Assembly (NCBI RefSeq): GCF_030405905.1
Contig: NZ_JASATW010000040.1
Location: 5,008 to 29,007 of the forward strand
Length of the DNA: 24,000 nt
DNA from: Sphaerothrix gracilis Ecp01
GTDB lineage: Bacteria; Cyanobacteriota; Cyanobacteriia; Phormidesmidales; Phormidesmidaceae
Direction of reading: 5' to 3'
Both the position numbers and the translations under genes were made by a program. Positions 2,022 to 20,427 of this stretch are shown piece by piece. The stretch's first letter is position 1. Every line of letters starts with the position of its first letter. Below the pieces are notes generated by a model, which did not search any database, was not told the DNA's origin, and saw only the letters and a list, made by a program, of their open reading frames with translations.

Positions 2022-2399
2022 ATGTCCCAGCCAATCGGCCTCAGTGAACTGATTCAGCAAGTTAAAAAGGAACTGCTAGCTCCTGTACTGGATAGAAAAT
2101 CAGATCCCCCCATTCTGTTTGTCGAATCGGTCGAACTGGAGCTGCAGGTGACCGCACGACGCGAAGGCAATGCCGGTATCAAAATCGATGTTCTCTCAGT
2201 CGGTGGCGGTGAAGCCGGTGGCGGCGTCAGTCACGAGAAAGCCCATACGGTGAAAGTTCAGCTATCGCCTTTATTCGATAAGGCCCAATTGCTGGAGTGG
2301 TATAAAGATCTCTATGGAGATGAGATTATGCCAGCGGTTAAGCGGAGTATGGAGGCTTTACTCAAAGGGGATGAAAGCAACATAGCCGACCGCTACTAG
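2022..2399 (+). CDS. trypco2-family small protein (trypsin co-occurring domain 2), predicted partner or regulator of the adjacent CHAT peptidase.
   Basis: 125-aa ORF. The pattern LSELIQQVKKEL...ILFVESVELELQVTARREGNAGIKIDVLSVGGGEAGGGVSHEKAHTVKVQL matches the trypco2 family as I remember it (E-rich helix, then VELEL...V strands with a G-rich loop). Its stop at 2397-2399 lies 1 nt before the CHAT ATG at 2401. Confidence 0.7.
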   Translation: MSQPIGLSELIQQVKKELLAPVLDRKSDPPILFVESVELELQVTARREGNAGIKIDVLSVGGGEAGGGVSHEKAHTVKVQLSPLFDKAQLLEWYKDLYGDEIMPAVKRSMEALLKGDESNIADRY

Positions 2400-2400
2400 G

Positions 2401-4026: not shown

Positions 4027-4078
4027 GCTAGCAGTCGCTTAGGATAGAAGGCATGTTTGCGCCTGAGGATGACTGGGT

Positions 4079-4885
4079 ATGGCTGCTACTGAGAACCTGA
4101 CGCTACATCGCTACACGTGCAGCAATACAGGGTATGTCGAGAAACTGGGGGACGGGGTAACGCTGACTCTCATGCAGATACCTGCTGGGGAGTTTTTGAT
4201 GGGCAGTGCTTCAGATGACCGGAACGGTCAAGATAATGAGCGTCCACAGCATCGGGTGAAGGTGCCGCGATTTTTCATGGGGCGAACTTCGGTGACTCAG
4301 GCTCAGTGGCGGGTGGTAGCAGGCTATGAAAGGGTAGATATTGACCTCGACCTCGCCCCCTCAGGCTTCAAGGGAGATGACTTGCCGGTGGAGCGAGTTA
4401 GTTGGTATGAGGCAACGGAGTTTTGCAAGCGGCTATCGAAGGAATTGAGTCGGCGACACTCGCCTCAAAGCCAGCCACAGTATCGTTTACCCTCAGAAGC
4501 TGAGTGGGAATATGCTTGCCGGGCAGCAACAACGACGACTTATCATTTTGGCGATCAGATCGCAGAAAATTTAGCGAATTACGATGGAGGCCTAGAAAGT
4601 AAGGTTGCCAGCTATCCAGCCAATCTCTGGGGATTGTATGACATGCATGGCAATGTCTGGGAGTGGTGCGAAGACGACTATCACGGTAGCTATGACAAGG
4701 CTCCTACCGATGGCAGCGCCTGGATAGCCGATAAAAATACTGAGTATAAAATACGTCGTGGCGGCTCCTGGCGCTACGACCCGAGGAACTGTCGCTCCGC
4801 GTTCCGCAACGACGGTACCCCGGCCTACCGCAACTACGACATCGGTTTTCGGGTTTGTTGTTCGGCCCCCAGGATTCTTCAGTAG
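4079..4885 (+). CDS. FGE-sulfatase / SUMF1-like (C-type-lectin-fold) domain protein, DGR target 1.
   Basis: Hallmark motifs present: [72 protein letters not shown]. The C-terminal 125 bp is homologous to the TR. Confidence 0.9.
   Translation: MAATENLTLHRYTCSNTGYVEKLGDGVTLTLMQIPAGEFLMGSASDDRNGQDNERPQHRVKVPRFFMGRTSVTQAQWRVVAGYERVDIDLDLAPSGFKGDDLPVERVSWYEATEFCKRLSKELSRRHSPQSQPQYRLPSEAEWEYACRAATTTTYHFGDQIAENLANYDGGLESKVASYPANLWGLYDMHGNVWEWCEDDYHGSYDKAPTDGSAWIADKNTEYKIRRGGSWRYDPRNCRSAFRNDGTPAYRNYDIGFRVCCSAPRILQ
4757..4880 (+). repeat. DGR variable repeat VR1.
   Basis: Aligns codon-for-codon with the TR at 14878-15002. Most differences fall at TR adenines (AAC to CGC, TAC, GAC, ACC). It has about 4 non-adenine differences by hand count, more than the other VRs. 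Confidence 0.75.
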
Positions 4886-4924
4886 CTCTTTATACTCTTG
4901 CCCTTTTGCTCTCTGCAGAAAAAA
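4881..4924 (+). promoter_or_regulatory. Conserved post-VR element, copy 1 (candidate DGR target-recognition flank).
   Basis: AGTAGCTCTTTATACTCTTGCCCTTTTGCTCTCTGCAGAAAA. Near-identical copies follow all four VRs, but nothing similar follows the TR. Confidence 0.5.
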
Positions 4925-5104
4925 TTTGCGTTCTTTTTCATTCGCCGTTAGGCGATCGCACTTTGCTATCAAATTCGGTGCTAGTCGTCTTTAGTGCCAA
5001 AAACTTGGTTAAAGTAGGGCATAAAGCCGGAAACTAGGCTAAATAGCTTGAAGAGCATAGAAGCTGTAGAAGCTGGTAGAGTACAGACTGCCTAGGGTGA
5101 GGTA

Positions 5105-6592
5105 ATGGCAGGGTTGGAGAGGAAAGACATCAAAGCGTTAAGAGATGCAATCTATTCGGTTTATCCAAACCATGACCGTTTTGAGATGTTTATTGCACTC
5201 GACGTTGATTCTGAGCAGCTCTGTGCAAGCGATCGCTCCGAAATTAAGATAGCGATCTTTAGGCTGATTCAGCAGGCTGAAAGTATAGGGGAAACAGAAA
5301 AGCTTCTTATCGGACTGCGAGATGCTAGCGAGGTCGAAAAACGAGAGGATATTCAGCAGTTATGTGATGATCTTCTTTTCAAACTGCAACCCACGGTTGA
5401 TCAAGAGAAACTGTCTATTGCAAAACCAGATCTAAATAGCTTATTTCAGCAGTTTGACGCAGCAATAGATTTCCCCTATATTCAAATCGCCTTTTATAGT
5501 GCATTTCAGACAGTTTTTGCTCGCTCTTTCTTCGAAATGCGCCCCGATCGCCCCTCTACTAATTCGTTAGCAGCAATCAGGAGACTTCTGGAAATTTATT
5601 CGGCAGAACTGGCTATTCGATTTGCGGAATACGCTCTTGAAGAGCTATCTCGTTCTCCTCTAGGAATGGGGAGGCAAAACTCGCAGTCTTTCTTTCAAGC
5701 CATAGACGACTGGCGACAGCGTATGGCCAACGAATTTGGTATTACAAGCCCGCTACCTAAAAAGATTCCTCAAGATTCTCAGGGATATTTGCTTGTAGCA
5801 TTTGACGCGCCACGACCAGATCTGTCTGATATCAGCATGACTGCAGAGTTGTACAGGGGGGAAGAAGCTTACTTTGGTCAGCCTGATGCGCCTCAATATT
5901 GCTGCAAGATTGAGGAAGCGGCCAATCGTCTATCTCAATGGATACTATCCGCTACAGAAAAACTAGCAGCTCAGAACTGTAAGCTTGACTGTATAGAACT
6001 GTTCTTGCCTTGCCATCACATAGAAAGTCTTACTGATGTTGCTGATGACTGGGAGGTGCATAATCTTCAGGGGCGATCGCGGCCTTTTGGGTCTCGAAAC
6101 TACATTATTCGCTCTTTGGAGCGGGCTGCTCAGGAACCCACTCAGGTCTGCCTTGCTAAGAATTGGGTTCAGCTTGAGCAATGTAAAAACAAAGATGTCT
6201 GCGACCACTTTCATCTTCAAAGAGATTGCCCAAAAGTAGGCGATTTGGAAGGATTGGAAGCATCTGGATTAAACTTGGTTGCTGATCTCTCCTCTAACAA
6301 GGGTGAACGTCAAGAGATTCTCTTCGACATTATTAACTCTGGGGTGCCTATTACGTTTTGGTTTGGTCCAAATAATCAACAAACGTCAGAAAAACGACTA
6401 AAAAGCTTGAAAGATGCGTTGAAAGATGTCGATCTGACGAACTTTGTGGGGCTAGCACAAGCTTGGAGAACAATTCGTGCTCGGGCTAATGTAAGACTGC
6501 TAGTGGATTGCCCGCACCGCCGTCCGAGCCTACCCGATCCTGAAAATCGGGAAGATGATGATTCTCTAGTGTCTGAGACGCTTAGCCCCTAG
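5105..6592 (+). CDS. VMAP-like adaptor (vWA-MoxR associated protein) with an N-terminal effector-associated domain.
   Basis: 495-aa ORF immediately upstream of the MoxR and vWA genes. Its N-terminal ~75 aa (KDIKALRDAIYSVYPNHDRFEMFIALDVDSEQL...IFRLIQQAESIGETEKLLIGL) has the same helical pattern as the CHAT C-terminus. The call rests mainly on gene context; I recognise no catalytic motif. Confidence 0.55.
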   Translation: MAGLERKDIKALRDAIYSVYPNHDRFEMFIALDVDSEQLCASDRSEIKIAIFRLIQQAESIGETEKLLIGLRDASEVEKREDIQQLCDDLLFKLQPTVDQEKLSIAKPDLNSLFQQFDAAIDFPYIQIAFYSAFQTVFARSFFEMRPDRPSTNSLAAIRRLLEIYSAELAIRFAEYALEELSRSPLGMGRQNSQSFFQAIDDWRQRMANEFGITSPLPKKIPQDSQGYLLVAFDAPRPDLSDISMTAELYRGEEAYFGQPDAPQYCCKIEEAANRLSQWILSATEKLAAQNCKLDCIELFLPCHHIESLTDVADDWEVHNLQGRSRPFGSRNYIIRSLERAAQEPTQVCLAKNWVQLEQCKNKDVCDHFHLQRDCPKVGDLEGLEASGLNLVADLSSNKGERQEILFDIINSGVPITFWFGPNNQQTSEKRLKSLKDALKDVDLTNFVGLAQAWRTIRARANVRLLVDCPHRRPSLPDPENREDDDSLVSETLSP

Positions 6593-6606
6593 TCCCTTGC
6601 TCGCCC

Positions 6607-7812
6607 ATGACCTGGAAATACAAGTACTTTCAAGGAAACTGCCATAGTGCTCAGCCTTCTGGCATGAAGCAGCCCCCTGAAGCTCCCCCCTGGCGGCGAT
6701 TTTTGCCGCGAGAAGAATTTCTTACGCAGCAACAGGCCCAGAAGCAGGCTGACGAGCAGGAACAGACCAAAGATGAAATCTACTGGACAAAGCTTCAGAA
6801 TCTCGCCGACGAAGATACACGGGCTATTCAACGGGGCAAGAGCTTTCGCATTTCTACTGGTAAAGAAGGAATGGCGGTGATTGATGCAGTCAATGCTGCG
6901 ATTCATCTACGGCGACCGCTGTTAGTAACGGGTGCCCCCGGCTCTGGTAAAACCTCACTGGCCTACGCGATCGCCTATGAGCTTCAACTGGGTCCCGTCC
7001 TCACTTGGCCCATTACTGCTCGCTCTAATTTGGTCGATGCTGAATATCGCTATGACGCTATTGCCCGTCTGCAGGACGCTCAGCTCGACAAAACCCGTAA
7101 TTTGATTGACTTAGCTGTTTTACTAGGTGTCGATGTTTCCCGTTTGCAAGAGGCCCAACTTGACAAAACTCGTCAAGGGGCAGCAACTCCGGAGGAAGGC
7201 GACTTGGGCGACTATATTCAGCTTGGCCCAGTGGGGACGGCCTTTTTGCCCTCCCTGCGGCCTCGGGTGTTGCTGATTGACGAAATTGATAAAAGTGACC
7301 TGAACCTACCCAATGACTTGCTCAACCTGTTTGAAGAAGGAGAATTTGAAATTCCAGAGCTGGTGCGTCGTAAGCGGCGTGGGCAAGATACCGACGATCC
7401 CAACGCCACCGTCACGGTACGCACTGCCGATAAAGAGATGGAGGCTCCCGTTACGAATGGTCGGGTGAAGTGCTGCGAATTTCCCATTGTGATCATGACC
7501 AGCAACGGTGAGCGCGACTTTCCCCCTGCTTTCTATCGTCGCTGTTTGCGGGTGCAGATGCCCAGCCCCGACGAAGACTCACTGAAACCGATTGTGCAGT
7601 CTCACTTTGAAGAGAGCGATCGCTGGGATGAGGTAGAGTCGCTTATCCGCAAATTCGTGAGTAAGGATAAGGGCAAAACCTCAGATCGGGCGACCGACCA
7701 GTTGCTCAATGCCGTTTATCTGATGGGGCGTCACCCAGACAGCCTGAGCGCGGATGAAAAAACTCGGCTCCGGGAGTTGTTGTTTCAGTCGTTGGGTGGC
7801 ACCGACGCATGA
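6607..7812 (+). CDS. MoxR-like AAA+ ATPase.
   Basis: Walker A is LLVTGAPGSGKTSLAYA and Walker B is RVLLIDEIDKSD. MTSNGERDFPPAFYRRC looks like the sensor/arginine-finger region. Its stop overlaps the next gene's start in an ATGA at 7809-7812. An internal Met start is possible. Confidence 0.85.
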   Translation: MTWKYKYFQGNCHSAQPSGMKQPPEAPPWRRFLPREEFLTQQQAQKQADEQEQTKDEIYWTKLQNLADEDTRAIQRGKSFRISTGKEGMAVIDAVNAAIHLRRPLLVTGAPGSGKTSLAYAIAYELQLGPVLTWPITARSNLVDAEYRYDAIARLQDAQLDKTRNLIDLAVLLGVDVSRLQEAQLDKTRQGAATPEEGDLGDYIQLGPVGTAFLPSLRPRVLLIDEIDKSDLNLPNDLLNLFEEGEFEIPELVRRKRRGQDTDDPNATVTVRTADKEMEAPVTNGRVKCCEFPIVIMTSNGERDFPPAFYRRCLRVQMPSPDEDSLKPIVQSHFEESDRWDEVESLIRKFVSKDKGKTSDRATDQLLNAVYLMGRHPDSLSADEKTRLRELLFQSLGGTDA

Positions 7813-10592
7813 CACAGTCTGGGGCCACGGGAGCATCGCCAGATCTGGTGAATGCGTTTCTCCAGCGGCTGGCTAAGGCGCAGGAACTTACGGGTATTGA
7901 AACCACGACCCAAATGGCGGAGCTGCTGTGGTTGGCGACTCATCTGGAATCAGATTTCCCATCACCCGAGTCTCCGGGTGATCAATCGGAGGATATAGAT
8001 GTCTCGCAAGACGATGAGGGCAGTCGCAGACTGACGCCCTCTACGGGGCGATCGCCATCTACTTCCTCTCCAGAGCACCCTTCTTCTAAACGAATAGACA
8101 TCGTAGCACCTACGCCACAGAAGGCATTGCCTCCCGAAGTGCTACCGGTGCAGATTGTTGACCCCGCAATGCTCTCTGACCCTCTAGCCATCATTAGGGC
8201 TCTCAAACCGCTCCTGCAGAAAATCGACGCCGGTACTGGCAGCCGTCTCGACGAATCTGCCACAGTTGATTTCATTGCTCGCACCCAGCTCTGTGTGCCA
8301 AAGCTGCAGCCTGATCAAGAGACGTGGTTTGACATCATTTTGGTGGTCGATCGCAGTAGCGCGTCGATGGTGATTTGGCAGCGCTTGGTACAAGATATTG
8401 TGCGCGCGCTCCGTCGGTACGGAGCCTTCCGCGATGTCCGGGTGTTTGATTTGGTGATCTATCCCGAAGCGCAACCAGCAGATCAGGTCATGCTGCGGTC
8501 TCATCCTCAGCGCCCAGATCACCATCCCAAAGAACTTATTGACCAGACAGGCCGTCGTCTTGCCATTGTCCTCAGCGACAGCACGGGTGCTCACTGGTGG
8601 CAGGGCATCCTAACGCCTACGCTAGAAACCTGGGGCCACCACATGCCTGTAGTTCTGTGGCAGATGCTGCCTCCTTGGATGTGGCAGCGCACTGCCCTAG
8701 GGCGAGGTATTCCTGTTTCCCTCAGAAATGATCTACCAGGAGGCACTAACCAGCGGTTAAAAAAAAGAGCCCCTGCGCAAAATACTCCGGCTAGTCTTCA
8801 GCAACGCATAGCCCTTCCGGTGGTGACTGGTGAAGAGCGTGACCTCAGCCGCTGGAGTCAGTTAGTAGCAGGCAAGCCGGGAGTGACTCCCGGCTTTTTG
8901 CTGCCGCCACCAGGGGGCACCGTGCCCCGCTCATCATCAGTGGAAACGCTCGCAGATGTTGAACTGGCTGAACGTCGAGTCGAGCGCTTTTTGCGGCTTT
9001 CTTCTCCCGATGCTCAGTGGCTGCTGATGCTGCTAGCGGCTGCCCCAGTGATTACCCTGCCCATCGTCCGGCTGATTCGAGAGGAGAAGCTTCCAGATGT
9101 GCGATCGCCCCTACCCATTGCCGAGGTCTTCACCGGTGGTTTATTGCAGCGTCTTCCTGGTCAAGAAGAGCGGGCACTGGAATCTACTTCGACTAAACCA
9201 GAGCAGTCGGATGAGCTGATAGAACCGCAAGACTTGGTGCAGTATGACTTTGCTGGCCGGGTGCGGGGGGTTTTGCTGAGTGGCAAGTGGCTACCGCCAG
9301 TAGACGCTGTCGATGTCATCAATAGTGTGTCTCGGGCGATCACCCGACGATTTAACCGCCTCTATCCTTATACCTTCCAGGCTTATCTTAAAGACCCTAA
9401 TATAGAACTACCGGAAGGTTTGGAGGGCGCGAAAACTTTCGCCACCATCACGGCTGATATTTTGGCTTCACTAGGACGACCCTATGAAGACCTAGTTCAA
9501 CAACTCAGAAGGGGAGCAGCGAAAGTTCCTGTCCCGGTTACAGAGCTCGATCCCTATGGTCGCCGTCTCCAAACCTTTGAATATGAAGTCGCTGAATACC
9601 TGAATCTTCCACCCCTTGAATCATTCGAGTTTGTTGATGCGCAACTTATAGATGACGACTTTCCACCATCTCTTGATACTGAAGACTTCACCATCATTAC
9701 CTTAGAACCGCAAACATCATCGAGGCCGGTACTGCAACCCTTTGAATTTGTGCTTGCCAAGCTCATACCTAGTCAGGATACGAATGAGTGGGTGATTGAG
9801 CGTCAGCAACGGCAAGCCAATCGCTTTACTGAACCCCTAGCAAATGACATTTACTTAAAGATGGTGGCAATTCCTGGTGGTACCTTCCTGATGGGTTCCC
9901 CAGAGAGTGAACCTGGACATTACGATCGCGAATCTCCTCAGCATGAAGTCGCTGTCCAGCCTTTCTTTATGAGCCGTTACCCAGTGACTCAGGTCCAATG
10001 GCGAGCTGTGGCAGCGCTACCCCAGGTAGAACGAGAGCTAAACTTAAACCCTTCAGGATTCAACGGCGAAAACCGCCCCGTAGAGCAAGTCTCTTGGGAT
10101 GACGCGGTTGAGTTCTGCGATCGCCTCTCAGCTCACACTGGACGTCAATACCGCCTGCCGACTGAAGCGGAATGGGAATACGCCTGTCGGGCTGGCACAA
10201 CGACACCATTCCATTTTAGCGACATGATTACCACGGAAGTAGCTAATTACAATGGCAGCGCTTATGCAGACGGGCCGAAAGGTGAGAGCCGAGGCGAAAC
10301 CACGCCGGTAGATCACTTCGAAATCGCTAACGCTTTTGGCCTAAGCGACATGCACGGTAACGTTTGGGAGTGGTGTCAGGATGACTGGCACAACACCTAT
10401 GAGGGAGCTCCCATAGATGGCAGCGCCTGGGTAACTGGCGGAAATACTGAGTATAAAATCAGACGTGGCGGTTCCTGGTTCGACAACCCGAGGCACTGCC
10501 GCTCCGCGTACCGCATCAGGCTCAACCCGGACAACCGCGACGTCAACGTCGGTTTTCGGGTCTGTTGTTCGGCCCCCAGGTCTCTTCAGTAG
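7809..10592 (+). CDS. vWA component of the vWA-MoxR system (SAV_2336 N-terminal-domain family) fused to a C-terminal FGE-sulfatase domain, DGR target 2.
   Basis: The N-terminus (LVNAFLQRLAKAQELT...MAELLWLATHL), a low-complexity S/P linker, then WFDIILVVDRSSASMVIWQRLVQDIVRALRRYGAFRDVRVFDL match the SAV_2336-type vWA proteins as I remember them. The C-terminal ~250 aa (from about 9840) carries IPGGTFLMGSP, PQHEVAVQPFFMSRYPVTQVQW, LPTEAEWEYACRAG, MHGNVWEWCQD, RGGSW and [10 protein letters not shown]. Confidence 0.85.
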   Translation: MTQSGATGASPDLVNAFLQRLAKAQELTGIETTTQMAELLWLATHLESDFPSPESPGDQSEDIDVSQDDEGSRRLTPSTGRSPSTSSPEHPSSKRIDIVAPTPQKALPPEVLPVQIVDPAMLSDPLAIIRALKPLLQKIDAGTGSRLDESATVDFIARTQLCVPKLQPDQETWFDIILVVDRSSASMVIWQRLVQDIVRALRRYGAFRDVRVFDLVIYPEAQPADQVMLRSHPQRPDHHPKELIDQTGRRLAIVLSDSTGAHWWQGILTPTLETWGHHMPVVLWQMLPPWMWQRTALGRGIPVSLRNDLPGGTNQRLKKRAPAQNTPASLQQRIALPVVTGEERDLSRWSQLVAGKPGVTPGFLLPPPGGTVPRSSSVETLADVELAERRVERFLRLSSPDAQWLLMLLAAAPVITLPIVRLIREEKLPDVRSPLPIAEVFTGGLLQRLPGQEERALESTSTKPEQSDELIEPQDLVQYDFAGRVRGVLLSGKWLPPVDAVDVINSVSRAITRRFNRLYPYTFQAYLKDPNIELPEGLEGAKTFATITADILASLGRPYEDLVQQLRRGAAKVPVPVTELDPYGRRLQTFEYEVAEYLNLPPLESFEFVDAQLIDDDFPPSLDTEDFTIITLEPQTSSRPVLQPFEFVLAKLIPSQDTNEWVIERQQRQANRFTEPLANDIYLKMVAIPGGTFLMGSPESEPGHYDRESPQHEVAVQPFFMSRYPVTQVQWRAVAALPQVERELNLNPSGFNGENRPVEQVSWDDAVEFCDRLSAHTGRQYRLPTEAEWEYACRAGTTTPFHFSDMITTEVANYNGSAYADGPKGESRGETTPVDHFEIANAFGLSDMHGNVWEWCQDDWHNTYEGAPIDGSAWVTGGNTEYKIRRGGSWFDNPRHCRSAYRIRLNPDNRDVNVGFRVCCSAPRSLQ
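10463..10587 (+). repeat. DGR variable repeat VR2.
   Basis: By hand alignment to the TR, 11 substitutions fall at TR adenines (AAC to TTC, GAC, CAC, ATC, CTC, GTC; ATC to GTC). Only 1 substitution falls elsewhere in the mutable core (TGT to TGC). Confidence 0.9.
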
Positions 10593-10631
10593 CCCTTTAT
10601 ACTCTTGCCCTTTTGCTCTCTGCGTAGAAAA
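10588..10631 (+). promoter_or_regulatory. Conserved post-VR element, copy 2.
   Basis: AGTAGCCCTTTATACTCTTGCCCTTTTGCTCTCTGCGTAGAAAA, ending directly at the likely ATG (10632) of the next FGS gene. Confidence 0.5.
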
Positions 10632-11477
10632 ATGCCAGCCCAACCCTCTCAGCTTATCGTCAACAAACGTCGGGGACAGAACCAATACTACGAGGAGTTT
10701 CTAGCCGAAGGCGTTCTGCCGTTGCGCATGATGCTGATTCCTGCCGGTCGCTTTCTCATGGGTTCGCCTGAGAGTGAACTAGAGCGAACTGAGGCTGAAG
10801 GCCCGCAGCATGAAGTCGCCGTGCCGCAGTTTTTCATGGCTAAGTATCCTGTGACCCAGGCCCAGTGGCGGGTTGTGGCAGCGCTGCCGGAGGTAAATCA
10901 AGGACTAAACTCCGATCCCTCTAAGTTTAAGGGAAATGACCGCCGTCCCGCCGAGCAGGTGTCTTGGCAGGATGCGGTCGAGTTTTGCGACAGGCTCACT
11001 ATTCACACCAACCGCCAATACCGCCTGCCGACCGAAGCTGAGTGGGAATACGCCTGCCGTGCTGGAACGACAACCCCCTTTCACTTCGGTGAGACGCTTT
11101 CTACTGACTACGCCAACTATCGAGGAAATGATGAGAAATACGGAGCTTATGGCCCAGGGAGCCGAGGCGAGTATCGCAAACAAACCACTCCAGTAGATCA
11201 TTTTGAAGGGGCGAATGCCTACGGCCTCTGCGATATGCACGGCAATGTTTGGGAATGGTGTCAAGATGACTGGCACGAAAACTATGAGCAGGCTCCTACG
11301 GATGGCAGTGCCTGGGTAACCGGCGGAAATGCTGAGTATAAAATTATACGTGGCGGTTCCTGGAGCGATGTCCCGAGGTACTGCCGCTCCGCGTTCCGCT
11401 TCAGGGACTTCCCGGACTTCCGCGACTCCGACATCGGTTTTCGGGTTTGTTGTTCGGCCCCCAGGATTCTTCAGTAG
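10632..11477 (+). CDS. FGE-sulfatase domain protein, DGR target 3.
   Basis: The track ORF starts at 10605. I prefer the ATG at 10632 (MPAQPSQLIV...) because 10605-10631 lies inside the conserved post-VR element. Motifs present: [73 protein letters not shown]. Confidence 0.88.
   Translation: MPAQPSQLIVNKRRGQNQYYEEFLAEGVLPLRMMLIPAGRFLMGSPESELERTEAEGPQHEVAVPQFFMAKYPVTQAQWRVVAALPEVNQGLNSDPSKFKGNDRRPAEQVSWQDAVEFCDRLTIHTNRQYRLPTEAEWEYACRAGTTTPFHFGETLSTDYANYRGNDEKYGAYGPGSRGEYRKQTTPVDHFEGANAYGLCDMHGNVWEWCQDDWHENYEQAPTDGSAWVTGGNAEYKIIRGGSWSDVPRYCRSAFRFRDFPDFRDSDIGFRVCCSAPRILQ
11348..11472 (+). repeat. DGR variable repeat VR3.
   Basis: By hand alignment to the TR, about 18 substitutions fall at TR adenines and 2 fall elsewhere. 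Confidence 0.9.
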
Positions 11478-11520
11478 CCCTTTATACTCTTGCCCTTTTA
11501 CGCTCTGCAGAGAAATAAGC
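11473..11520 (+). promoter_or_regulatory. Conserved post-VR element, copy 3.
   Basis: AGTAGCCCTTTATACTCTTGCCCTTTTACGCTCTGCAGAGAAATAAGC. It contains the 10-bp palindrome CTCTGCAGAG. Confidence 0.5.
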
Positions 11521-11548
11521 TGTTAAGAAATAAATCAACTTCTTGCGA

Positions 11549-11737
11549 TTAGTCGTCTGATGTGGGTGTTCCGTGGCGGCTGCTATCGGATTCTGAGTTG
11601 CTGACGCCTAAGTCCGTTGTCTCATCTGCGGCTGATTCCAGATGGTTTTCTTTTCGCGTAAACACATAGTGCTCAAAGATTTTGCGCCTCAGCCGATGGG
11701 TGTCGCCGTGCATCAGGTGGGCTTCCCAGCTCTGTAA
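11549..11737 (-). pseudogene. Displaced 3' fragment of the DGR reverse transcriptase gene: the authentic C-terminal 60 codons plus stop, cut off by the IS insertion.
   Basis: The minus strand from 11731 down to 11549 reads SWEAHLMHGDTHRLRRKIFEHYVFTRKENHLESAADETTDLGVSNSESDSSRHGTPTSDD*. If the IS and one CTGTAA copy are removed, this is in frame with ...LQPLVQRLQ of the RT. SW.(A/G)H..HGDT..LR is the usual DGR RT C-terminal motif. Confidence 0.8.
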
Positions 11738-13454
11738 CCAACATTCCGCAGGTTGCCAAAAGATTAGGTAGGTGCATAGTAGGGCTCAACATGAGCCCCC
11801 AAGAATCGGATGATTGTGCGCCGCTCATCAGTCAGGTTACTAATCTGCTTGAGGTGTCCGAACTGCACAAAATGAATGCCCTGAAACTTCTGAATGACCC
11901 ACCGAAAGGTAGGGTTGACAGTAGGCTGTTTTTTCTGGTCGAGGATTGTTTGCTGTTGTGCCGCCAGGGTTTGTCTAAGCTTACGTTCAGCTAAGGTGTA
12001 GACCATCAAAGTCAGGGCCATGACCAGGGCTAGAGCCTCGACTCTTTGGGCTTTTTTGACAAACAGGCTGCTGGCGAAGAACAACGGGTCTTTGAGAAAG
12101 CGAAACCCGCGCTCAGTCTTCTGTTGGCCCTTGTACTCTTGCAATAGCTTGTCAGCAGGCCACTGCTGGGTATCGAGGTGATTGGTGGCCAGGATAAACC
12201 GACTGCGCTGGTTCTGGTAGGCAGTGCTCCGGCGCTCAAGCTTGGCTTTGAGGCGGTAGCCGGTGGCAGGTGGTGTGTCTTTAGCTTTTGCTTTAGTTCG
12301 CTGACCCGGTGCCCGTTTCGGTCGAAGCGTCTCAACGCTGACCTCAGTGAGGTGATGGACCGCCAAGGTGTCTTGGAAGCGCATCAGGGCTTCGAGGGCA
12401 TCGGGCTTACAGGCAAAGACCTGTTGCTGCAGCTGCTTGAGGTTGCGGTGCAATCGTTTCTCTAGCTGCTTGAGTTCGGGCTCCCACAGCGACTGGTCAG
12501 CCTTGCGCGTCAGACTCTCAATCAGAATCCAGCGCTGCTGAACTCCACCATACTCAGCGGTTGTCTCCCACATCCGGTAGTCCTTGAGGGTGCAAGCAAC
12601 TGGCGTCAGTTCGCTGGTATCACTTTGCACGAGCGCTTGGGCATCGCTCAAGGTTTGGGGTACCCGTGAGACCCATTTGAGTGAGCCGACCTGCTGTAAG
12701 TTCGGCTCGCTGTAAAAGGCTGCGTCGATAACGAACACACTGTCCATCTGCCAACTGTTGGCAAACTGGCGCATCAACCCGGCAAACTGCTGCGCGTCAC
12801 TCTGGTTGCCATCTGCAACCTTCAGCCACAGCGGCACGCCCCCATCCGCGCTACACATTAGATTCACCACAAACTGCTTCAGGTCGGGTCGTTGGTCTCT
12901 TGAATAGCCTCGACAGATCTCGATAGGCACCTGATCTAAGTCTCCCGACTCAACCCTCTCCCGCCCATACTCGCCTTGCAACGAAAACGAACTCGAGTCT
13001 AGATGAACCTGGCCAACATCGACGCCAAATCGCTCCACCGCCTGCATCGCCACACGCAAAAAGAAACTGCTGGTGCCCTCTTCATATAACTCGTCGAGCA
13101 CACGTCCGAGACGGTCATCGTTCAGGTAACTCGCTTGTATGCCTTCGCCGAGCAAATGCTCAACCGGCTTACTCTCAAAGAACTCGCTGAACAGGTACAG
13201 AGGCGCGCTCACAAAACCCAAGCCGTTCAGTATCAGTGCTTTGACCACTTGCCCCGCGCTGATGTGCTCCAGCTGATGCTGGCCTAATTGTGCGTTGGTC
13301 AGTTCCACCAGTCCTACCTCGTCAACCATCCCGGCAACCAAGCCTAGGTGATCCAGATTCTCTATCTTCAATCGATGCATCCATTCTCTTGAGGGCTGCT
13401 TCTACTCTACGGCACACCACCTTTCTTATTCATTGTCAACCTGCGGAATGTAGG
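11738..13454 (-). mobile_element. IS1634-family (IS4 superfamily) insertion sequence, apparently complete at 1717 bp.
   Basis: The terminal inverted repeats are CCAACATTCCGCAGGTTG (11738-11755) and the reverse complement of CAACCTGCGGAATGTAGG (13437-13454), matching at 17 of 18 positions. They are flanked by the direct repeat CTGTAA at 11732-11737 and 13455-13460. One long transposase ORF lies inside. Confidence 0.85.
11764..13380 (-). CDS. IS1634-family DDE transposase.
   Basis: 538-aa ORF. The N-terminus IENLDHLGLVAGMVDEVGLVE...ISAGQVVKALILNGLGF is the DUF4277-type start typical of IS1634/IS4 transposases. A DDE-type core follows (VFVIDAAFYS...). Confidence 0.85.
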   Translation of the reverse strand: MHRLKIENLDHLGLVAGMVDEVGLVELTNAQLGQHQLEHISAGQVVKALILNGLGFVSAPLYLFSEFFESKPVEHLLGEGIQASYLNDDRLGRVLDELYEEGTSSFFLRVAMQAVERFGVDVGQVHLDSSSFSLQGEYGRERVESGDLDQVPIEICRGYSRDQRPDLKQFVVNLMCSADGGVPLWLKVADGNQSDAQQFAGLMRQFANSWQMDSVFVIDAAFYSEPNLQQVGSLKWVSRVPQTLSDAQALVQSDTSELTPVACTLKDYRMWETTAEYGGVQQRWILIESLTRKADQSLWEPELKQLEKRLHRNLKQLQQQVFACKPDALEALMRFQDTLAVHHLTEVSVETLRPKRAPGQRTKAKAKDTPPATGYRLKAKLERRSTAYQNQRSRFILATNHLDTQQWPADKLLQEYKGQQKTERGFRFLKDPLFFASSLFVKKAQRVEALALVMALTLMVYTLAERKLRQTLAAQQQTILDQKKQPTVNPTFRWVIQKFQGIHFVQFGHLKQISNLTDERRTIIRFLGAHVEPYYAPT

Positions 13455-14483
13455 CTGTAACCGCTGCACCAGGGGCTGAAGAGTGATTTTGCCGGTTTCG
13501 TAGTCTTGCTGGAGCTGCTTCATCCGTCGCCGTGCCCGTCTGAGATTGTCATTGCGCACCCGAATCCGATCCGGTAAGACACGGAAGCCGACAAAGCTAG
13601 CCCCATGATGGGTTTCAAAGAGCTGACTCTTAATCGGATGCATTTTCAGCCGTAACGTGACCAGGAAATCTTCCATTGCCCGTTTGGCCGCTGCCAACTC
13701 CTGCCAGTCATTTGAAAAGGCGGCATAGTCATCGACGTACCTGAGATAGTAGCGCAGCTTAAGCTGTCGCTTCACAAAGTGATCAAAGGGGCTGAGATAG
13801 AGATTGGCGAAAAACTGGCTGGTCAAATTTCCGATAGGCAAGCCCTTGCGGCGTTGAACTGGCGTCAGTAAGTCATCTCCCGGAAAGTATTCAATCACCG
13901 GCTCCTGCTCATTGCTGGCGTCGATAATCGTATCAATCAGCCATAGCGTATTGGGACACCTAATTTTCTCTCGGATCAAGGTCTTGAGGATTTTGTGATC
14001 GATTGAGGGAAAATACTTCTGGATGTCCCCCTGCAGGCAGTAGCGCTGACTGCGAGCAAATTGGGTGAATCGTTTCAGAGCCCGATGTGTGCCGTAGCCG
14101 CTGCGGTTGGCATAGGTATCGACAATCAGCGTCTGCTCCAGCAGCGGCGTGATCACATTACACAACGCATGATGCACCACCCGGTCCCGATAAGGCGCTG
14201 CTGAAATCAAACGCGGCTTGGGATCTCGAATCTTGAACGTGCGGTATGCCCCAGGGCGATAGGTGTGGTCTTCCAGCTCCTGCTGCAGGGCCGGAAGTTC
14301 CCGTTCCAGAGCATAGTTAAACGCCAGAACATTGTCCCGAAAGCGTTTTCCCTTTTGTGCCTGCCGTGAGGCCAGCAGCAGATTTTCAAAGTCAAGGATG
14401 TCTGGCCAGAGATTACCGTGACGTTTCATGGGACTTCTGACTCTGCTATTTGATCCAGCCGCCGAGATCGGTACCGATAGCAT
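13407..14483 (-). CDS. DGR reverse transcriptase, 3' end interrupted by the IS. The last 15 codons plus stop (13407-13454) are IS-derived, and the likely true start is the ATG at 14429.
   Basis: RT motifs present: [51 protein letters not shown] (the DGR-type I/LGxxxSQ motif) and [11 protein letters not shown] (YxDD). It lies downstream of an Avd gene and close to the TR. The start [20 protein letters not shown] at 14429 avoids overlap with avd. Confidence 0.9.
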
Positions 14484-14772
14484 TGATGAGCTGCCCTACA
14501 TACTGGTATCGCTTATGAGATAACAAATCAAAATCCAGCAGCAGCCGGGTTTGATAGCGCAGGACATCTAATTTGCTGTTGATGACCTGGAGCTGAGGCA
14601 GTTTATCGCGCTGATAGCGAGCCATAATCAAGCTTTCCAACAATCCATAAAGGCCCATCACCATGCGATCGCCTAGCTGGAATCTATGGTCTCGGGGCAA
14701 TCGATTGAGAATCGGCACGTACCATTTAATCAAGTCGTAGGTTTTCTGAATAATCGGTAGCTCAGTTGCCAT
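14446..14772 (-). CDS. avd: DGR accessory variability determinant (Avd; four-helix-bundle, 23S rRNA intervening-sequence-protein-like).
   Basis: The track ORF is 183 aa (14446-14997), but its first 75 codons run antisense through the TR. Starting at Met76 (ATG at 14772-14770) gives 108 aa: [53 protein letters not shown]... This is the usual Avd size and pattern, directly upstream of the RT. Confidence 0.8.
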
Positions 14773-14877
14773 CGGTTCTCTGTATGTGGATAGGACAGAG
14801 GCCAGGATACAGTATGCAACATCGGCTTCATTTTTACCGTCAGGCTGCTGTATGCTGCTGACGGGGTAGGCCGCTAA

Positions 14878-15002
14878 ACGTGGCGGTTCCTGGAACAACA
14901 ACCCGAGGAACTGTCGCTCCGCGTACCGCAACAGGAACAACCCGGACAACCGCAACAACAACATCGGTTTTCGGGTCTGTTGCTCGGCCCCCAGCACTCT
15001 TC
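14878..15002 (+). repeat. DGR template repeat (TR).
   Basis: This 125-bp intergenic copy of the VR sequence has 11 AAC codons where the VRs carry mixed codons: ...TGG AAC AAC AAC CCG AGG AAC TGT CGC TCC GCG TAC CGC AAC AGG AAC AAC CCG GAC AAC CGC AAC AAC AAC ATC GGT... Its 3' end (TGC TCG GCC CCC AGC ACT CTT C) differs from the VR 3' ends (TGT TCG GCC CCC AGG ...), as expected for IMH* versus IMH (IMH = initiation of mutagenic homing site). Confidence 0.9.
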
Positions 15003-15172
15003 TATCGCCAGCAATGGCCGGTCAGAACTGGCAGGTGGGAATCTGTCGGGCGTACCCCAGAAGAGTCCAGACCTACTCCGGCGATATCCATCGAGGTATC
15101 CAAAAATCAAACCGGGCCAGCTATTTTGGTAGGGCAACCGAAGACCTAGCTGGCCCTCTCACCTTACCGCCA

Positions 15173-15985
15173 ATGTCTCTCACCATCCGCCGCACCCCCC
15201 GCCAATGCCGAGGCTACCCGGAACCCCTTTTAGAGATTACCGATGCCCTACCCCTGCACATGGTGCTCATCCCTAGCGGCACCTTCACGATGGGCTCCCC
15301 CGACGATGAACCCGATCGCAAAGATAATGAAGGGCCGCAACGAGAGGTCACCGTGCCGACGTTCTTTCTAGGCCGCTACCCGGTCACCCAAGCTCAATAC
15401 GAAAAGGTTATGGAGACGAATCCAGCCACTCGGTACGAGGCAGACCGACTTGTTGCCCCTAACAAGCCTATTGTCGGTGTGAGCTGGCAGGATGCGGTCG
15501 AGTTTTGCGATCGCCTGGCTCAGCTCACGAGCCGTCCCTACCGCCTGCCCTCAGAAGCGGAATGGGAGTACGCTTGCAGAGCGGGCACAACCACCCCCTT
15601 CTACTTCGGCAGAACCCTGACCGACGAACTCGCCAATTACCGAGCCTCGGCAACCTATGCAGAGGGTCCAGCGGGGCAATTTCGTAACGAAACGACGCCA
15701 GTAGACCATTTCGATGTCGCCAATGCCTTTGGTCTGTCTGATATGCACGGCAATGTCTATGAGTGGTGTCAGGACAACTGGCACGCCACCTATGAGGGGG
15801 CTCCTACTGATGGCAATGCTTGGTTAATCGGTGGAGATAAAAGGTATAAAATTATACGTGGCGGTTCCTGGGACGACAGCCCGGGGTACTGCCGCTCCGC
15901 GTTCCGCAACGTGGGCAACCCGGTCAACCGCTACATCAGCATCGGTTTTCGGGTTTGTTGTTCGGCCCCCAGGACTCTTCAGTAG
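15173..15985 (+). CDS. FGE-sulfatase domain protein, DGR target 4.
   Basis: The track ORF starts at 15014. I prefer the in-frame ATG at 15173 (MSLTIRRTPRQ...), which gives 270 aa like its paralogs. Motifs present: [73 protein letters not shown]. Confidence 0.88.
   Translation: MSLTIRRTPRQCRGYPEPLLEITDALPLHMVLIPSGTFTMGSPDDEPDRKDNEGPQREVTVPTFFLGRYPVTQAQYEKVMETNPATRYEADRLVAPNKPIVGVSWQDAVEFCDRLAQLTSRPYRLPSEAEWEYACRAGTTTPFYFGRTLTDELANYRASATYAEGPAGQFRNETTPVDHFDVANAFGLSDMHGNVYEWCQDNWHATYEGAPTDGNAWLIGGDKRYKIIRGGSWDDSPGYCRSAFRNVGNPVNRYISIGFRVCCSAPRTLQ
15856..15980 (+). repeat. DGR variable repeat VR4.
   Basis: By hand alignment to the TR, about 14 substitutions fall at TR adenines and 2 fall elsewhere. 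Confidence 0.9.
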
Positions 15986-16030
15986 CCCTTTATACTCTTG
16001 CCCTTTTGCTCTTTACAGAGAAAAATAAGC
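15981..16030 (+). promoter_or_regulatory. Conserved post-VR element, copy 4.
   Basis: AGTAGCCCTTTATACTCTTGCCCTTTTGCTCTTTACAGAGAAAAATAAGC. CTCT-TTAC-AGAG can form a short stem-loop where copy 3 has CTCT-GC-AGAG. Confidence 0.5.
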
Positions 16031-16403: not shown

Positions 16404-17207
16404 TCAAGCTCGGGCTGAAGGATTGGCTTCAGTTGAGCGAGTGGCTGCGGCGCGTTTGCGATAGCTATCGGTATGGATTTCGACAATCAAGGCATGATGC
16501 ACGAGACGATCTACCGCCGCGACCGTCATCATGTCGTCGGCAAAAATGGTGTCCCATTGACTGAAAGGCTGATTGGCCGTGATTAAAAGACTGCGCCGTT
16601 CATAGCGATGGGCAATGAGCTCAAAGAGGACCAAGGTTTCGGCTTCTGACTTTTTGACGTAGCCAAGGTCATCAATGACTAGCAGATCAAAACGGTCCAG
16701 CTTGTGGAGCAAAGCGGGCAATTGCAACTGCAACTGCAACTTAGCCTGCTGCAATTGCTGTACCAATGCCGTCGCAGTGAAGAATTTAGCCCGTTTGCCG
16801 AGTTCGACAATAGAGCGCGCCAAGGCTGCCGCCAAATGAGTTTTGCCGACACCGGAAGGCCCGAAGATTAAACAGTTTTCGGCGCGCTCTAGCCAGCCGG
16901 TATCCGTGGCCAGTTGCATCAGCGGCAGCGGATTGAGCTTTGGGACATGGTTCTAGTCAAAGTTGGAAACCGTTTTGGCGGCGGGGAGTTGGGCCTCTTG
17001 CAGGGCGCGTTTGAGGCGCACACTCCAGCGTCGGTCCACCTCCAATTCGCAGAGTGCCAGTCAGAATTGAGCGTAAGACCACTGTTCTTGCATGGCCTGG
17101 TGTTCGAGGGTTTCCCAGTGCTGGAGCATGTGAGAGAGGCGGGCAGGCCAGTAGGTTGCTTGAAAATAAACTCGTCCCGGACTTTGAGGTGTAATCGTGC
17201 GTTTCAC
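16404..17207 (-). pseudogene. istB: IS21-family istB (AAA+ helper ATPase) pseudogene with two in-frame stop codons.
   Basis: The intact 171-aa ORF (16404-16919) contains WLERAENCLIFGPSGVGKTHLA (Walker A) and FDLLVIDDLGY (Walker B). Reading the same frame upstream gives VKRTITPQSPGRVYFQATYWPARLSHMLQHWETLEHQAMQEQWSYAQF*LALCELEVDRRWSVRLKRALQEAQLPAAKTVSNFD*NHVPKLNPLPLMQLATDTGW. The stops are a TGA at 17063-17061 and a TAG at 16955-16953. A GTG start at 17207 would give a normal ~267-aa IstB. Confidence 0.8.
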
Positions 17208-20360: not shown

Positions 20361-20427
20361 TTGCTATTGAGTGAGTCTAATTCTATTTGAATCGAATTAC
20401 TCATTATTATTAATTTTGTTTGAAGCT

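Follow-up and report, generated by a model that had tools for sequence, protein, structure and literature searches.

A four-target diversity-generating retroelement with an interrupted reverse transcriptase gene in Sphaerothrix gracilis Ecp01

Genes and repeats at the locus

The window, a stretch of 24,000 nt, carries one template repeat (TR), four variable repeats (VR) and the following genes and tracts, all on the forward strand:

2022–2399, +, Trypco2 adaptor, a putative effector partner, upstream of target 1
2401–4026, +, CHAT caspase-like protease, a putative effector partner, immediately upstream of target 1
4079–4885, +, target 1 ORF, 268 aa, FGE-sulfatase/CLec fold only
4753–4887, +, VR1, 3' end of target 1, the worst fit to the present TR
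4886–4925, +, pyrimidine-rich tract after the VR1 stop codon
5105–6592, +, EAD1 and VMAP-C protein
6607–7812, +, MoxR-like AAA ATPase
7809–10592, +, target 2 ORF, 927 aa, SAV_2336-type N-terminal and FGE-sulfatase/CLec domains
10460–10594, +, VR2, 3' end of target 2
10593–10630, +, pyrimidine-rich tract after VR2
10605–11477, +, target 3 ORF, CLec-only, likely true start at ATG 10632
11345–11479, +, VR3, 3' end of target 3
11478–11515, +, pyrimidine-rich tract after VR3
14875–15009, +, TR (mutable part 14876–14965, IMH*-like 3' part 14966–15009)
15173–15985, +, most likely ORF of target 4, 270 aa
15853–15987, +, VR4, 3' end of target 4
15986–16025, +, pyrimidine-rich tract after VR4

All four targets that end in a VR have the FGE-sulfatase/C-type-lectin fold; an upstream extension of the target 4 ORF to 15014, which would overlap a structured RNA, is probably spurious. 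Target 2 comes after the MoxR-like AAA gene and forms with it and the EAD1/VMAP-C gene a 'VMAP ternary' gene set. The same order (EAD/VMAP, AAA, large target) recurs in the related loci L001, L003, L004 and L006 and has been described for clade 5E (PMC10907252). An earlier note on this DNA took one target to be fused to a vWA protein, the name that the literature gives to such targets (PMC10907252). Pfam found no VWA domain in it even at E<=1: the N-terminus of target 2 is the NCBIfam 'SAV_2336 N-terminal' domain, and its structure model gave weak and mixed matches.

The repeat occurs exactly five times in the window, always on the + strand, with pattern starts at 4757, 10464, 11349, 14879 (TR) and 15857; in shuffled sequence the 5' flank pattern is expected 0.06 times and the core pattern 0 times. 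The five strings that the earlier note had aligned by hand are identical to the sequence in every letter. The TR/VR homology is longer than was noted there, spanning 14875–15009, and includes one more variable codon upstream (AAA at 14876–14878 in the TR; ATA, AGA or CGT in the VRs). In the mutable part, 30 adenines are spread over 17 codons, of which 11 are AAC, as had been counted before.

Substitutions were tallied over a core of 72 nt (14894–14965; 27 A and 45 non-A positions). Mismatches to the TR at A and non-A positions numbered 13 and 3 for VR1, 11 and 1 for VR2, 17 and 2 for VR3, and 13 and 2 for VR4, so that 54 of 62 differences (87%) fall on TR adenines. Fisher p values run from 7e-5 (VR1) to 7e-8. 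The adenine-specific divergence first seen by eye is thus borne out by a substitution count, the differences concentrating on TR adenines instead of spreading evenly. Every one of the 27 core adenines is the first or second base of its codon in the frame shared by all four target ORFs, and 24 of them are altered in at least one VR. The flanks had been called invariant; on the 5' side this stands for the other copies but not strictly for VR1, which reads CGTGGCGGCTCCTGG. The IMH-like 3' stretch carries fixed differences between TR and VRs at 14983, 14995, 15003 and 15006. Among the VRs the non-adenine core sites and the IMH are near-identical while the neighbouring 5' coding flanks of these paralogues differ by 15–30%, implying repeated overwriting from the TR.

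Each of the four VRs is followed, after the stop codon, by a pyrimidine-rich octamer-repeat tract that is conserved among the four and across the clade. No such tract stands after the TR, and we found no description of a post-VR tract of this kind in the literature. The earlier note had passed over this tract, as well as the inversion of avd and RT and the split in the RT gene reported below.

The split reverse transcriptase gene and the template RNA

Between target 3 and the TR lie, on the reverse strand:

14446–14772, –, avd accessory gene, 108 aa, intact (NF033474, E 1.6e-39, above cut-off)
13455–14429, –, 5' part of the RT gene, M1–Q325 of the original protein
11740–13454, –, IS1634-family insertion sequence, about 1715 bp, inside the RT gene
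11549–11737, –, displaced 3' end of the RT gene, encoding LQSWEAHLMHGDTHRLRRKIFEHYVF... and then a stop

The RT had been neither located nor examined in the earlier note; it is encoded opposite to the TR and the targets, next to avd, which is transcribed divergently from the TR. Its best match is the Bordetella phage DGR RT (bRT; PDB 8ub7, E 3.6e-49), far ahead of group II intron RTs (E 1.9e-17) and of chains labelled retron-type RT (about 1e-7), and the motifs IGNLTSQ and YVDD are present. Together with the adenine bias, this supports the DGR reading first made from the letters alone.

As it stands, the RT ORF (13407–14483) runs into the insertion sequence, which supplies its last 15, foreign residues and leaves a fusion of 340 aa counted from the first Met. 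The insertion sequence encodes an intact transposase of 538 aa (11764–13380; NF033559, E 6.5e-106), its terminal inverted repeats match at 20/22 positions, and direct copies of the target-site duplication CTGTAA(CC) lie at 11732–11739 and 13455–13462. In principle, an assembly artefact could have produced the junction, but the clean target duplication argues against this. Insertion took place at codon ~325 of a 385-codon gene, at the loss of the last 60 residues: all homologues continue ...LQSWEAHLxHGDTYRLRRK..., and the window's ORF departs from them after ...RLQ. The lost segment is present in all eight close homologues aligned (8/8) and aligns to bRT residues about 300–323 (SW..H...DTH.L), showing that it has been kept across phyla; the lost residues include a helix whose conservation extends from cyanobacteria to the Bordetella phage RT. 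When the RT was read through the insertion, the alignment reached bRT residue 323 of 328 and the score rose from 171 to 180 bits.

Directly 3' of the TR, and overlapping its end, lies a structured, spacer-like RNA, listed here with the elements upstream of the TR:

14851–14856, +, TATGCT, candidate –10 element of an independent TR-RNA promoter
14863–14871 (CGGGGTAGG) with 15072–15080 (CCTACTCCG), +, long-range duplex
14996–15156, +, structured spacer-like RNA as a whole
14996–15002 with 15060–15066, +, P1
15028–15049, +, 9-bp stem with GGGA tetraloop, an Avd-binding-type stem-loop
about 15081–15101, +, hairpin
15102–15113, +, A-rich linker
15114–15123 with 15147–15156, +, long stem

Across 51 sequences 97.3% of cells were paired, and 29 of 37 pairs showed compensatory changes; none of 500 shuffles scored as high, and pairing dropped to 31–45% when the partners were slid. 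The long-range duplex covaries as well: in about 50 loci its pairing is kept by variants such as GGGACAGG/CCTGTTCC and GGGGCAGG/CCTGCTCC. It corresponds to the 'cPRT Stop duplex' of cyanobacterial DGR RNAs; both a 9-bp stem with a GNRA loop and the Stop duplex are published elements of Cyanobacteriota DGRs (bioRxiv 10.1101/2023.10.23.563531). A consensus scan for a TR-RNA promoter found no full sigma-70 site. Related inverted loci have a similar TAT(C/T/G)CT 6–9 nt upstream of the GGGG strand.

Relation to described elements

The same script found more than 60 homologous cyanobacterial loci with TR/VR pairs. The window's DGR falls within a published cyanobacterial clade, 'clade 5E' of Dore et al. 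2024 (PMC10907252; see also Vallota-Eastman et al. 2020, PMC7517822), whose members diversify sensors of MoxR/VMAP conflict systems. Its RT is 65–84% identical to those of Nodosilinea, Leptolyngbya, Acaryochloris, Nostoc, Fischerella and others, and it shares with the clade Avd, C-type-lectin/FGE-sulfatase targets (one long, with short lectin-only ones), a MoxR ATPase, VMAP, EAD/Trypco adaptors and protease effectors at the locus, and transposases nearby; it differs in that its RT is split by an insertion sequence. Of 67 related loci whose TR could be detected, 51 have avd-RT-TR in this order on one strand. In the window avd and RT instead lie on the – strand, opposite to the TR and every target (+), a layout common to a clade of 12 loci, this one included, so that the TR lies upstream of avd on the other strand.

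Trichodesmium erythraeum IMS101, whose locus L033 is among the relatives, has an RT of the same family, multiple targets and 17 rewritten codons. Its TR is an independently transcribed, abundant non-coding RNA of 265 nt (Pfreundt et al. 2014, PMC4143802), against about 295 nt predicted here. In the sequenced Trichodesmium strain a point stop codon has inactivated the RT while TR and VRs remain, and in the window the IS1634 insertion has probably done the same; the Trichodesmium TR is on the RT's own strand, downstream of it. With its 12 VRs (PMC4143802), scattered genome-wide and not clustered within 11 kb like the window's four, that DGR also shows that the earlier placing of four targets at the high end was overstated: four within 11 kb is high only against the 1–3 per locus in 80 related loci counted.

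The prototype BPP-1 (bRT-Avd-RNA structures 8ub7–8ube) resembles the window in its adenine-specific TR-to-VR transfer, Avd and RT, a VR that forms the C-terminal end of a C-type-lectin fold, IMH/IMH*-type 3' differences, and a spacer RNA with a stem-loop, the sequences on either side of the TR pairing in a duplex. BPP-1, however, belongs to a phage, has one target (mtd) and keeps the order mtd-avd-TR-brt on a single strand, whereas the window has a cellular element with four targets and a TR antisense to avd-RT; and the VR of BPP-1 is followed by a GC-rich hairpin/cruciform in place of the pyrimidine-rich repeat tract. The Thiohalocapsa PB-PSB1 DGRs and vWA-MoxR-VMAP ternary systems likewise join a diversified lectin domain to a large N-terminal region; the gene lies in a MoxR-VMAP operon alongside EAD, Trypco and CHAT-type partners, and a role as antigen sensor was proposed (Kaur et al. 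2020, cited in PMC10907252). They belong to another phylum and RT subclade, and the window's target lacks a Pfam-detected vWA domain. The window contains a genuine chromosomal DGR of a well-described cyanobacterial type, and an ordinary example of it.

Origin of the repeats and present state of the element

Could the repeats have arisen without retroelement activity, as a conserved C-terminal motif of lectin-fold paralogues plus a pseudogene fragment, homogenized by gene conversion? The four target genes are 65–82% identical over 300 nt, and conservation of lectin-fold C-termini is general. Yet neither gene conversion nor drift puts 87% of the differences at adenines of a single non-coding copy, all of them in the first two positions of their codons; that copy adjoins Avd and an RT of DGR type, a conserved structured RNA comes after it, and the same arrangement recurs across dozens of genomes. 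We regard this origin as extremely improbable, the substitution spectrum effectively refuting it. A narrower doubt concerns VR1, which might be a drifting relic last written by an older TR or a paralogous DGR, leaving only VR2–VR4 as targets of the present TR. Its adenine share is the lowest (17/29 mismatches over the whole block), its 5' flank is changed where the other copies are invariant, and it is the most distant copy, at 10 kb, among a different effector set (Trypco2-CHAT). Two of its codon changes, AGG to GAC and AAC to GGT, are unexplained by adenine mutagenesis of the present TR alone; most related TRs read AAC where this one has AGG (or AAT at the next codon), and from such a template both would be plain adenine substitutions. 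On the other hand, VR1 reads TGT like the present TR and unlike VR2–4, which read TGC, the IMH-like end and the post-stop tract are kept as well in it as in VR3, its adenine enrichment is still significant, and DGRs are known to make occasional non-adenine changes (PMC5758913). Overall, a relic status for VR1 seems to us doubtful.

Given that the conserved RT C-terminus is stranded beyond the insertion sequence, the DGR is, judging by its sequence, probably inactive now. The four VRs might still be diversifying through the truncated fusion with Avd or through another DGR RT of the same genome: the catalytic YVDD, IGNLTSQ and everything aligned to bRT residues 3–286 are intact, the truncated protein retains fingers, palm and most of the thumb and might keep some activity, and avd, TR, spacer RNA and the four VR ORFs with their IMH-like ends are all undamaged. 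Moreover, two or three DGR RTs occur together in some related genomes (Leptolyngbya PCC 7375, with two, Leptothoe and Fischerella), so that action in trans is conceivable; no second RT is visible within the 24-kb window. A contig of the same strain that could show VR variation was looked for and not found. What weighs against continued activity is the conservation of the lost segment in all the close homologues and in bRT, and the loss of thumb helices in other RTs usually abolishes template-primer binding, which by analogy may apply here. We therefore think it unlikely, if well short of negligible, that the element still works.

While active, the DGR would have transcribed an RNA of ~295 nt (about 14863–15156), TR plus folded spacer, on the + strand from its own promoter, to which the divergently encoded Avd and RT would bind. 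By analogy with the Bordetella phage system, this RNA may prime its own reverse transcription, the RT misincorporating opposite the 30 template adenines. The cDNA would then replace the homologous last ~130 nt of the four genes, at the end of the C-type-lectin (FGE-sulfatase) fold, rewriting 17 codons and allowing about 1e17 possible peptides per target.

Altogether, we consider a cyanobacterial-clade DGR that rewrote four lectin-fold targets, and is now probably inactive, the best explanation of the locus, with a probability of roughly 85%. Because the RT is interrupted, 'DGR' names what wrote the repeats and not necessarily a working element. Its targets may be sensors with rewritten tips: target 2 would act as the large, sensor-type component in a conflict system of MoxR ATPase and VMAP, and the other three are short lectin-only proteins, one of them adjoining the Trypco2-CHAT protease pair.

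The template repeat and its variable copies

Searches with patterns for the 5' flank and the invariant core found exactly five copies of the repeat, all on the plus strand and starting at 4757, 10464, 11349, 14879 and 15857; the expectation in shuffled sequence is 0.06 for the flank pattern and 0 for the core pattern. The template repeat (TR) is non-coding, and the variable repeats (VR1 to VR4) form the final ~130 nt of four ORFs.

14875-15009, plus strand, TR
4079-4885, plus strand, target 1, ending in VR1
7809-10592, plus strand, target 2, ending in VR2
10605-11477, plus strand, target 3, ending in VR3
15173-15985 (likely), plus strand, target 4, ending in VR4

The strings aligned by hand in the earlier note agreed letter for letter with a MAFFT alignment and with an ungapped comparison. 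We compared TR and VRs over a 72-nt core (14894-14965), in which the TR has 27 adenines and 45 other bases. The adenine-site divergence claimed in that note held: 54 of the 62 core differences fall at TR adenines (Fisher p between 7e-5 and 7e-8 in every VR).

Mismatches to the TR within the 72-nt core
VR1: 13 at adenines, 3 at other bases
VR2: 11 at adenines, 1 at another base
VR3: 17 at adenines, 2 at other bases
VR4: 13 at adenines, 2 at other bases

The differences are thus concentrated on adenines; an even spread over A, C, G and T is what the note had named as incompatible with its claim. All 27 core adenines lie at codon position 1 or 2 in a frame shared by the four ORFs, 24 of them are altered in at least one VR, and the count of 11 AAC codons in the TR was correct. 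The 5' flank, described as invariant, is so in VR2 to VR4 but carries one change in VR1. Furthermore, the TR/VR homology is longer than had been stated, running from 14875 to 15009 and including an additional variable codon (TR AAA, 14876-14878). With 17 adenine-containing codons, about 1e17 peptides are possible per target; each VR encodes a peptide with 9-13 residues changed relative to that of the TR. Past the last variable adenine the TR differs from all four VRs at 14983, 14995, 15003 and 15006, and, as judged from the alignment, these fixed 3' differences have the pattern expected of IMH* versus IMH. The CAGC (TR) versus CAGG (VR) difference is common to all related loci inspected.

Of the 45 core positions without an adenine, each VR departs from the TR at only 1-3, whereas the 95 nt of coding sequence 5' of the repeat contain 14-28 differing positions between the four paralogous targets. 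If the TR had repeatedly overwritten these genes, one would expect just such homogeneity, limited to the segment that they have in common with the TR; this speaks for past activity of the element. VR1 has GAC GGT in place of the TR's AGG AAC, which requires three non-adenine changes. Since most related TRs carry AAC at the position of this AGG, VR1 may have been last written from an earlier version of the TR or from a different diversity-generating retroelement (DGR).

An inverted avd-RT segment, interrupted in the RT gene

The remaining parts of the DGR lie between targets 3 and 4.

14446-14772, minus strand, avd gene
13455-14429, minus strand, 5' part of the reverse transcriptase (RT) gene
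11740-13454, IS1634-family element with a 538-aa transposase (DUF4277 and DDE_Tnp_1) and 20/22 terminal inverted repeats
11549-11737, minus strand, displaced 3' end of the RT gene

The Avd gene (108 aa), immediately left of the TR, matches NF033474 (DivGenRetAVD) over its full length with 134 bits (cut-off 80), and PF22296 as well. Among solved structures, the best match of the RT is the Bordetella phage DGR RT (bRT, 8ub7, E 3.6e-49); the best group II intron RT comes next (E 1.9e-17), and chains labelled retron-type RT score ~1e-7. Its motifs include PIGNLTSQ (PIGSLTSQ in bRT) and the catalytic YVDD. The RT is thus far closer to bRT than to retron or group II intron RTs, with which, according to the earlier note, a true DGR RT should not group; together with the concentration of differences on adenines, this means that the DGR claim withstood both tests set for it. 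The closest RTs, at 82-84% identity, are from Nodosilinea and Leptolyngbyaceae cyanobacteria. The protein clusters of the window RT and of target 2 are singletons; the 358-aa RT ORF has no exact database record because the called gene begins at an internal Met.

The gene order is target 3 on the plus strand, RT and avd on the minus strand with avd nearest the TR, then TR and target 4 on the plus strand. Since the adenine bias is on the plus strand, the template RNA must be plus sense. We surveyed this layout in four homologous loci found by exact protein and 80 loci from reference genomes, using the same simple TR/VR finder throughout. A TR was detectable in 67 loci: in 51 of them avd, RT and TR share one strand and a target follows, and in 14 the TR sits on the opposite strand, upstream of avd, as in the window. 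In a neighbour-joining RT tree, 12 of the opposite-strand loci (window included) form a single clade, sister to a group with the common order. The difference amounts to inversion of the avd-RT segment alone, and a TR antisense to avd-RT is inherited and fixed in the subclade. Wu et al. state that TR and RT can be on different strands and that co-transcription is not required (PMC5758913), so an opposite-strand TR is an already documented kind of variation. The whole subclade works or worked with a TR RNA antisense to avd-RT, confirming that co-transcription of template and RT is dispensable. A possible third arrangement is seen in a gammaproteobacterial locus (L074, Candidatus Parabeggiatoa sp. 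HSG14, ~9051-10850), with the TR downstream of the RT on the opposite strand; its RT is 67% identical to the cyanobacterial clade, it has the same spacer RNA, and horizontal transfer may be involved.

The window holds the RT lineage, TR/VR adenine bias, VR position, lectin fold, Avd, IMH/IMH* and spacer RNA of a DGR; its RT gene, which a working element needs intact, is split by the IS1634-family element. The RT is collinear with eight close homologues up to ...PLVQRLQ and then runs into 15 unrelated residues and a stop, where all eight continue SWEAHLxHGDTYRLRRKxFDxYxF.... Directly downstream lies an intact IS1634-family transposase (NF033559, E 6.5e-106). The insert ends in the inverted repeats CCAACATTCCGCAGGTTGCCAA and CCTACATTCCGCAGGTTGACAA and is flanked by a direct duplication of 6-8 bp, CTGTAA(CC), at 11732-11739 and 13455-13462. 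We found these ends by aligning both junctions after the divergence of the RT C-terminus had been noticed; a generic inverted-repeat finder missed them. On the far side lies exactly the missing RT C-terminus (last 60 residues): reading 11737 to 11549 on the minus strand gives LQSWEAHLMHGDTHRLRRKIFEHYVF... and then a stop. Joined, the two parts give a protein of 385 aa whose alignment, with bRT SWSGHAQWADTHNL facing SWEAHLMHGDTHRL, reaches bRT residue 323 of 328 and scores 180 bits instead of 171. The original RT stop would lie 72 nt from the target 3 stop, the same convergent spacing as in the homologous locus L001.

At the sequence level, then, the insertion in the RT gene is real, and, with the transposase intact and the duplication perfect, it is recent. 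The segment lost from the RT is conserved from cyanobacteria to Bordetella phage, and the RT is presumably inactive. A megablast of the element against plasmids gave no match. Two metagenome searches, one with the RT junction predicted for an IS-free gene and one with a strain-specific 39-mer from between avd and TR, likewise gave no match, and so neither an empty site nor alternative VR alleles; no contig of the same strain was found. A parallel is found in a cultured strain of Trichodesmium, in which the RT carries a stop codon and TR and VRs persist (PMC4143802). The window thus provides a clean natural case of DGR decay by IS insertion with all other parts intact, and the strain, if cultured, is a natural RT-knockout control.

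Targets and neighbouring genes

All four targets match PF03781 (FGE-sulfatase, C-type-lectin fold) with E 1e-54 to 1e-57. The view that four targets are at the high end for a DGR was not borne out: Trichodesmium has 12 (PMC4143802). The other surveyed loci have 1-3 VRs within +/-10 kb of the RT; four clustered targets are above average and unremarkable.

Target 2 (927 aa) lies downstream of two genes of the kind found in vWA-MoxR-VMAP ternary conflict systems: one for a VMAP protein with an effector-associated domain (5105-6592; VMAP-C 36.4 bits, cut-off 27; EAD1 29.3 bits, cut-off 24.2) and one for a MoxR-like AAA ATPase (6607-7812; AAA_5, dynein-related/MoxR type, E 9e-8, above cut-off). Residues 1-674 of target 2 have no Pfam VWA match even at E<=1, and its N-terminus matches the NCBIfam SAV_2336 N-terminal domain (E 1e-100). 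In an AlphaFold model built from 31 homologues (mean pLDDT 68), residues 175-365 form an alpha/beta core; Foldseek gave this model weak matches throughout (best E 0.009), some to phosphoribosyltransferases and others to MIDAS/vWA domains. The family consensus contains a vWA-like pattern, ILVVDRGSSM ... IVLSDCAG, and such targets of this clade have been described as vWA-containing (PMC10907252). The fusion to a vWA protein named in the earlier note was not confirmed by these comparisons.

Upstream of target 1 are a Trypco2 adaptor and a CHAT protease. The three genes form a tight run (2022-4885) with overlap or gaps of <=52 nt, which suggests that the VR1 protein is the sensor of a caspase-like effector that stands apart from the MoxR/VMAP set. 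Beside target 4, a 171-aa ORF (16404-16919, minus strand) matches IstB, the helper ATPase of IS21, over its C-terminal two thirds alone and is probably the remnant of a second mobile element. Further right (17976-24000, plus strand) lie a NACHT NTPase (794 aa, NACHT and NCH2) and a WD40 protein of >1200 aa that runs off the window, its blades forming 126-nt tandem repeats at 22141-23823; this pair is a second, unrelated STAND-type conflict or signalling module. GC falls to 0.36 at 18001-20000; the left edge (1-1000) also has low GC (0.34) and is without long ORFs. HIP1 octamers (GCGATCGC), a cyanobacterial hallmark, occur 16 times in the window against 0.4 expected; together with the closest RTs, they mark the source as a filamentous cyanobacterium outside the set of reference genomes searched.

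The template RNA and the tract behind the variable repeats

Beyond the mutable part of the TR, ~165 nt are strongly conserved across loci regardless of RT orientation. RNAalifold on 51 sequences gave 37 pairs in 7 helices. Standard pairs occupy 97.3% of cells, versus 31-45% when partners are slid by 1-3 columns; compensatory double changes occur in 29 pairs, and none of 500 shuffles reached the observed values.

Elements of the template RNA
14863-14871, CGGGGTAGG, 9-nt strand just upstream of the TR, pairing with 15072-15080
14996-15002 with 15060-15066, P1, linking the TR end to the spacer
15028-15049, 9-bp stem with GGGA tetraloop
between the GGGA stem-loop and the long stem, a hairpin and then an A-rich stretch
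15114-15123 with 15147-15156, long stem

The duplex between upstream and downstream strands covaries across loci (GGGACAGG/CCTGTTCC, GGGGCAGG/CCTGCTCC and GGGACAAG/CTTGTTCC). The GGGA stem corresponds to the Avd-binding stem-loop (9 bp and a GNRA loop) of Cyanobacteriota DGRs, and the window also has counterparts of their 'cPRT Stop' duplex with its adjacent stem-loop and adenosines; both are reported to be conserved among those DGRs (Handa et al., bioRxiv 10.1101/2023.10.23.563531). A search of the whole window against Rfam at gathering thresholds gave no hit; no curated family therefore covers the spacer RNA. The Trichodesmium TR is transcribed from a start site of its own as an abundant RNA of 265 nt (PMC4143802). 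A consensus promoter and terminator scan of 14650-15300 found nothing; the -10 proposed for the TR RNA is a candidate based on positional conservation in relatives. Because the RNA spans 14863-15156, the ORF start at 15014 is probably spurious; the in-frame ATG at 15173 is the most likely start of target 4 and would give a paralogue-like protein of 270 aa.

Over the 83 nt past the core, a stretch that reaches ~40 nt beyond the stop codon, pairwise identity among the four VRs is still 89-93%; the TR shares nothing there. Right at the stop codon of each VR gene starts a pyrimidine-rich tract of octamer repeats.

4886-4925, plus strand, tract after VR1
10593-10630, plus strand, tract after VR2
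11478-11515, plus strand, tract after VR3
15986-16025, plus strand, tract after VR4

From 103 distinct VR ends of the clade, its consensus is CCCTTTACCCTTTTGCCCTTTTGCCCTTTT, in which a purine recurs at roughly every eighth base. The tract, highly specific to VR ends, follows every VR in the homologous loci L001-L085 and is absent after the TR. In the same loci, mean pyrimidine content over the first 40 nt is 0.81 after VR genes versus 0.52 after other long ORFs. In relatives a GC-rich hairpin with a GNRA loop and a T-run often come after the tract; in the window, one HIP1 copy sits within a small hairpin after the VR1 tract.

We considered several explanations. A general cyanobacterial 3'-UTR feature was rejected because, of 71 strict matches to three consecutive units (1.27 Mb, both strands), 56 coincide with a detected VR end, and an undetected VR is expected at most of the remaining 15. 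A G-quadruplex or i-motif, which takes four C3 runs, fits many relatives but was dropped as a general explanation, since the window's four tracts have only two CCC runs each. Pairing of the tract with AGGGCAA of the spacer RNA was likewise set aside, as the complementarity is lost in other loci, and a short palindrome after the tract, TCTCTGCAGAGA, is not kept among the four VRs. Another reading, to which we give roughly one chance in three, is that the tract might serve this clade as a cis-acting target-site signal, standing in for the GC-rich hairpin/cruciform seen in the Bordetella phage DGR. As such it could mark the lectin genes that accept cDNA, or keep the sense strand open for cDNA annealing. 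In the DGR literature searched we found only the IMH and a GC-rich inverted repeat (in a minority of DGRs), and no description of the tract.

Altogether, the DGR identification was correct: the DGR in the window belongs, as a new member, to a cyanobacterial clade that is well described. Its avd-RT is inverted, as is typical of the subclade, its template RNA is complete, and one of its four lectin-fold targets lies in a MoxR/VMAP conflict system; its RT gene has recently been split by the IS. The clade, the lectin-fold targets, the MoxR/VMAP link, the independently transcribed TR RNA and the conserved RNA elements are already published, and as a DGR the window adds little to them. The post-VR repeat tract is the sole element for which the searched literature offered no description, and it offers a concrete and testable way in which a cellular DGR without the hairpin might recognise several dispersed targets.
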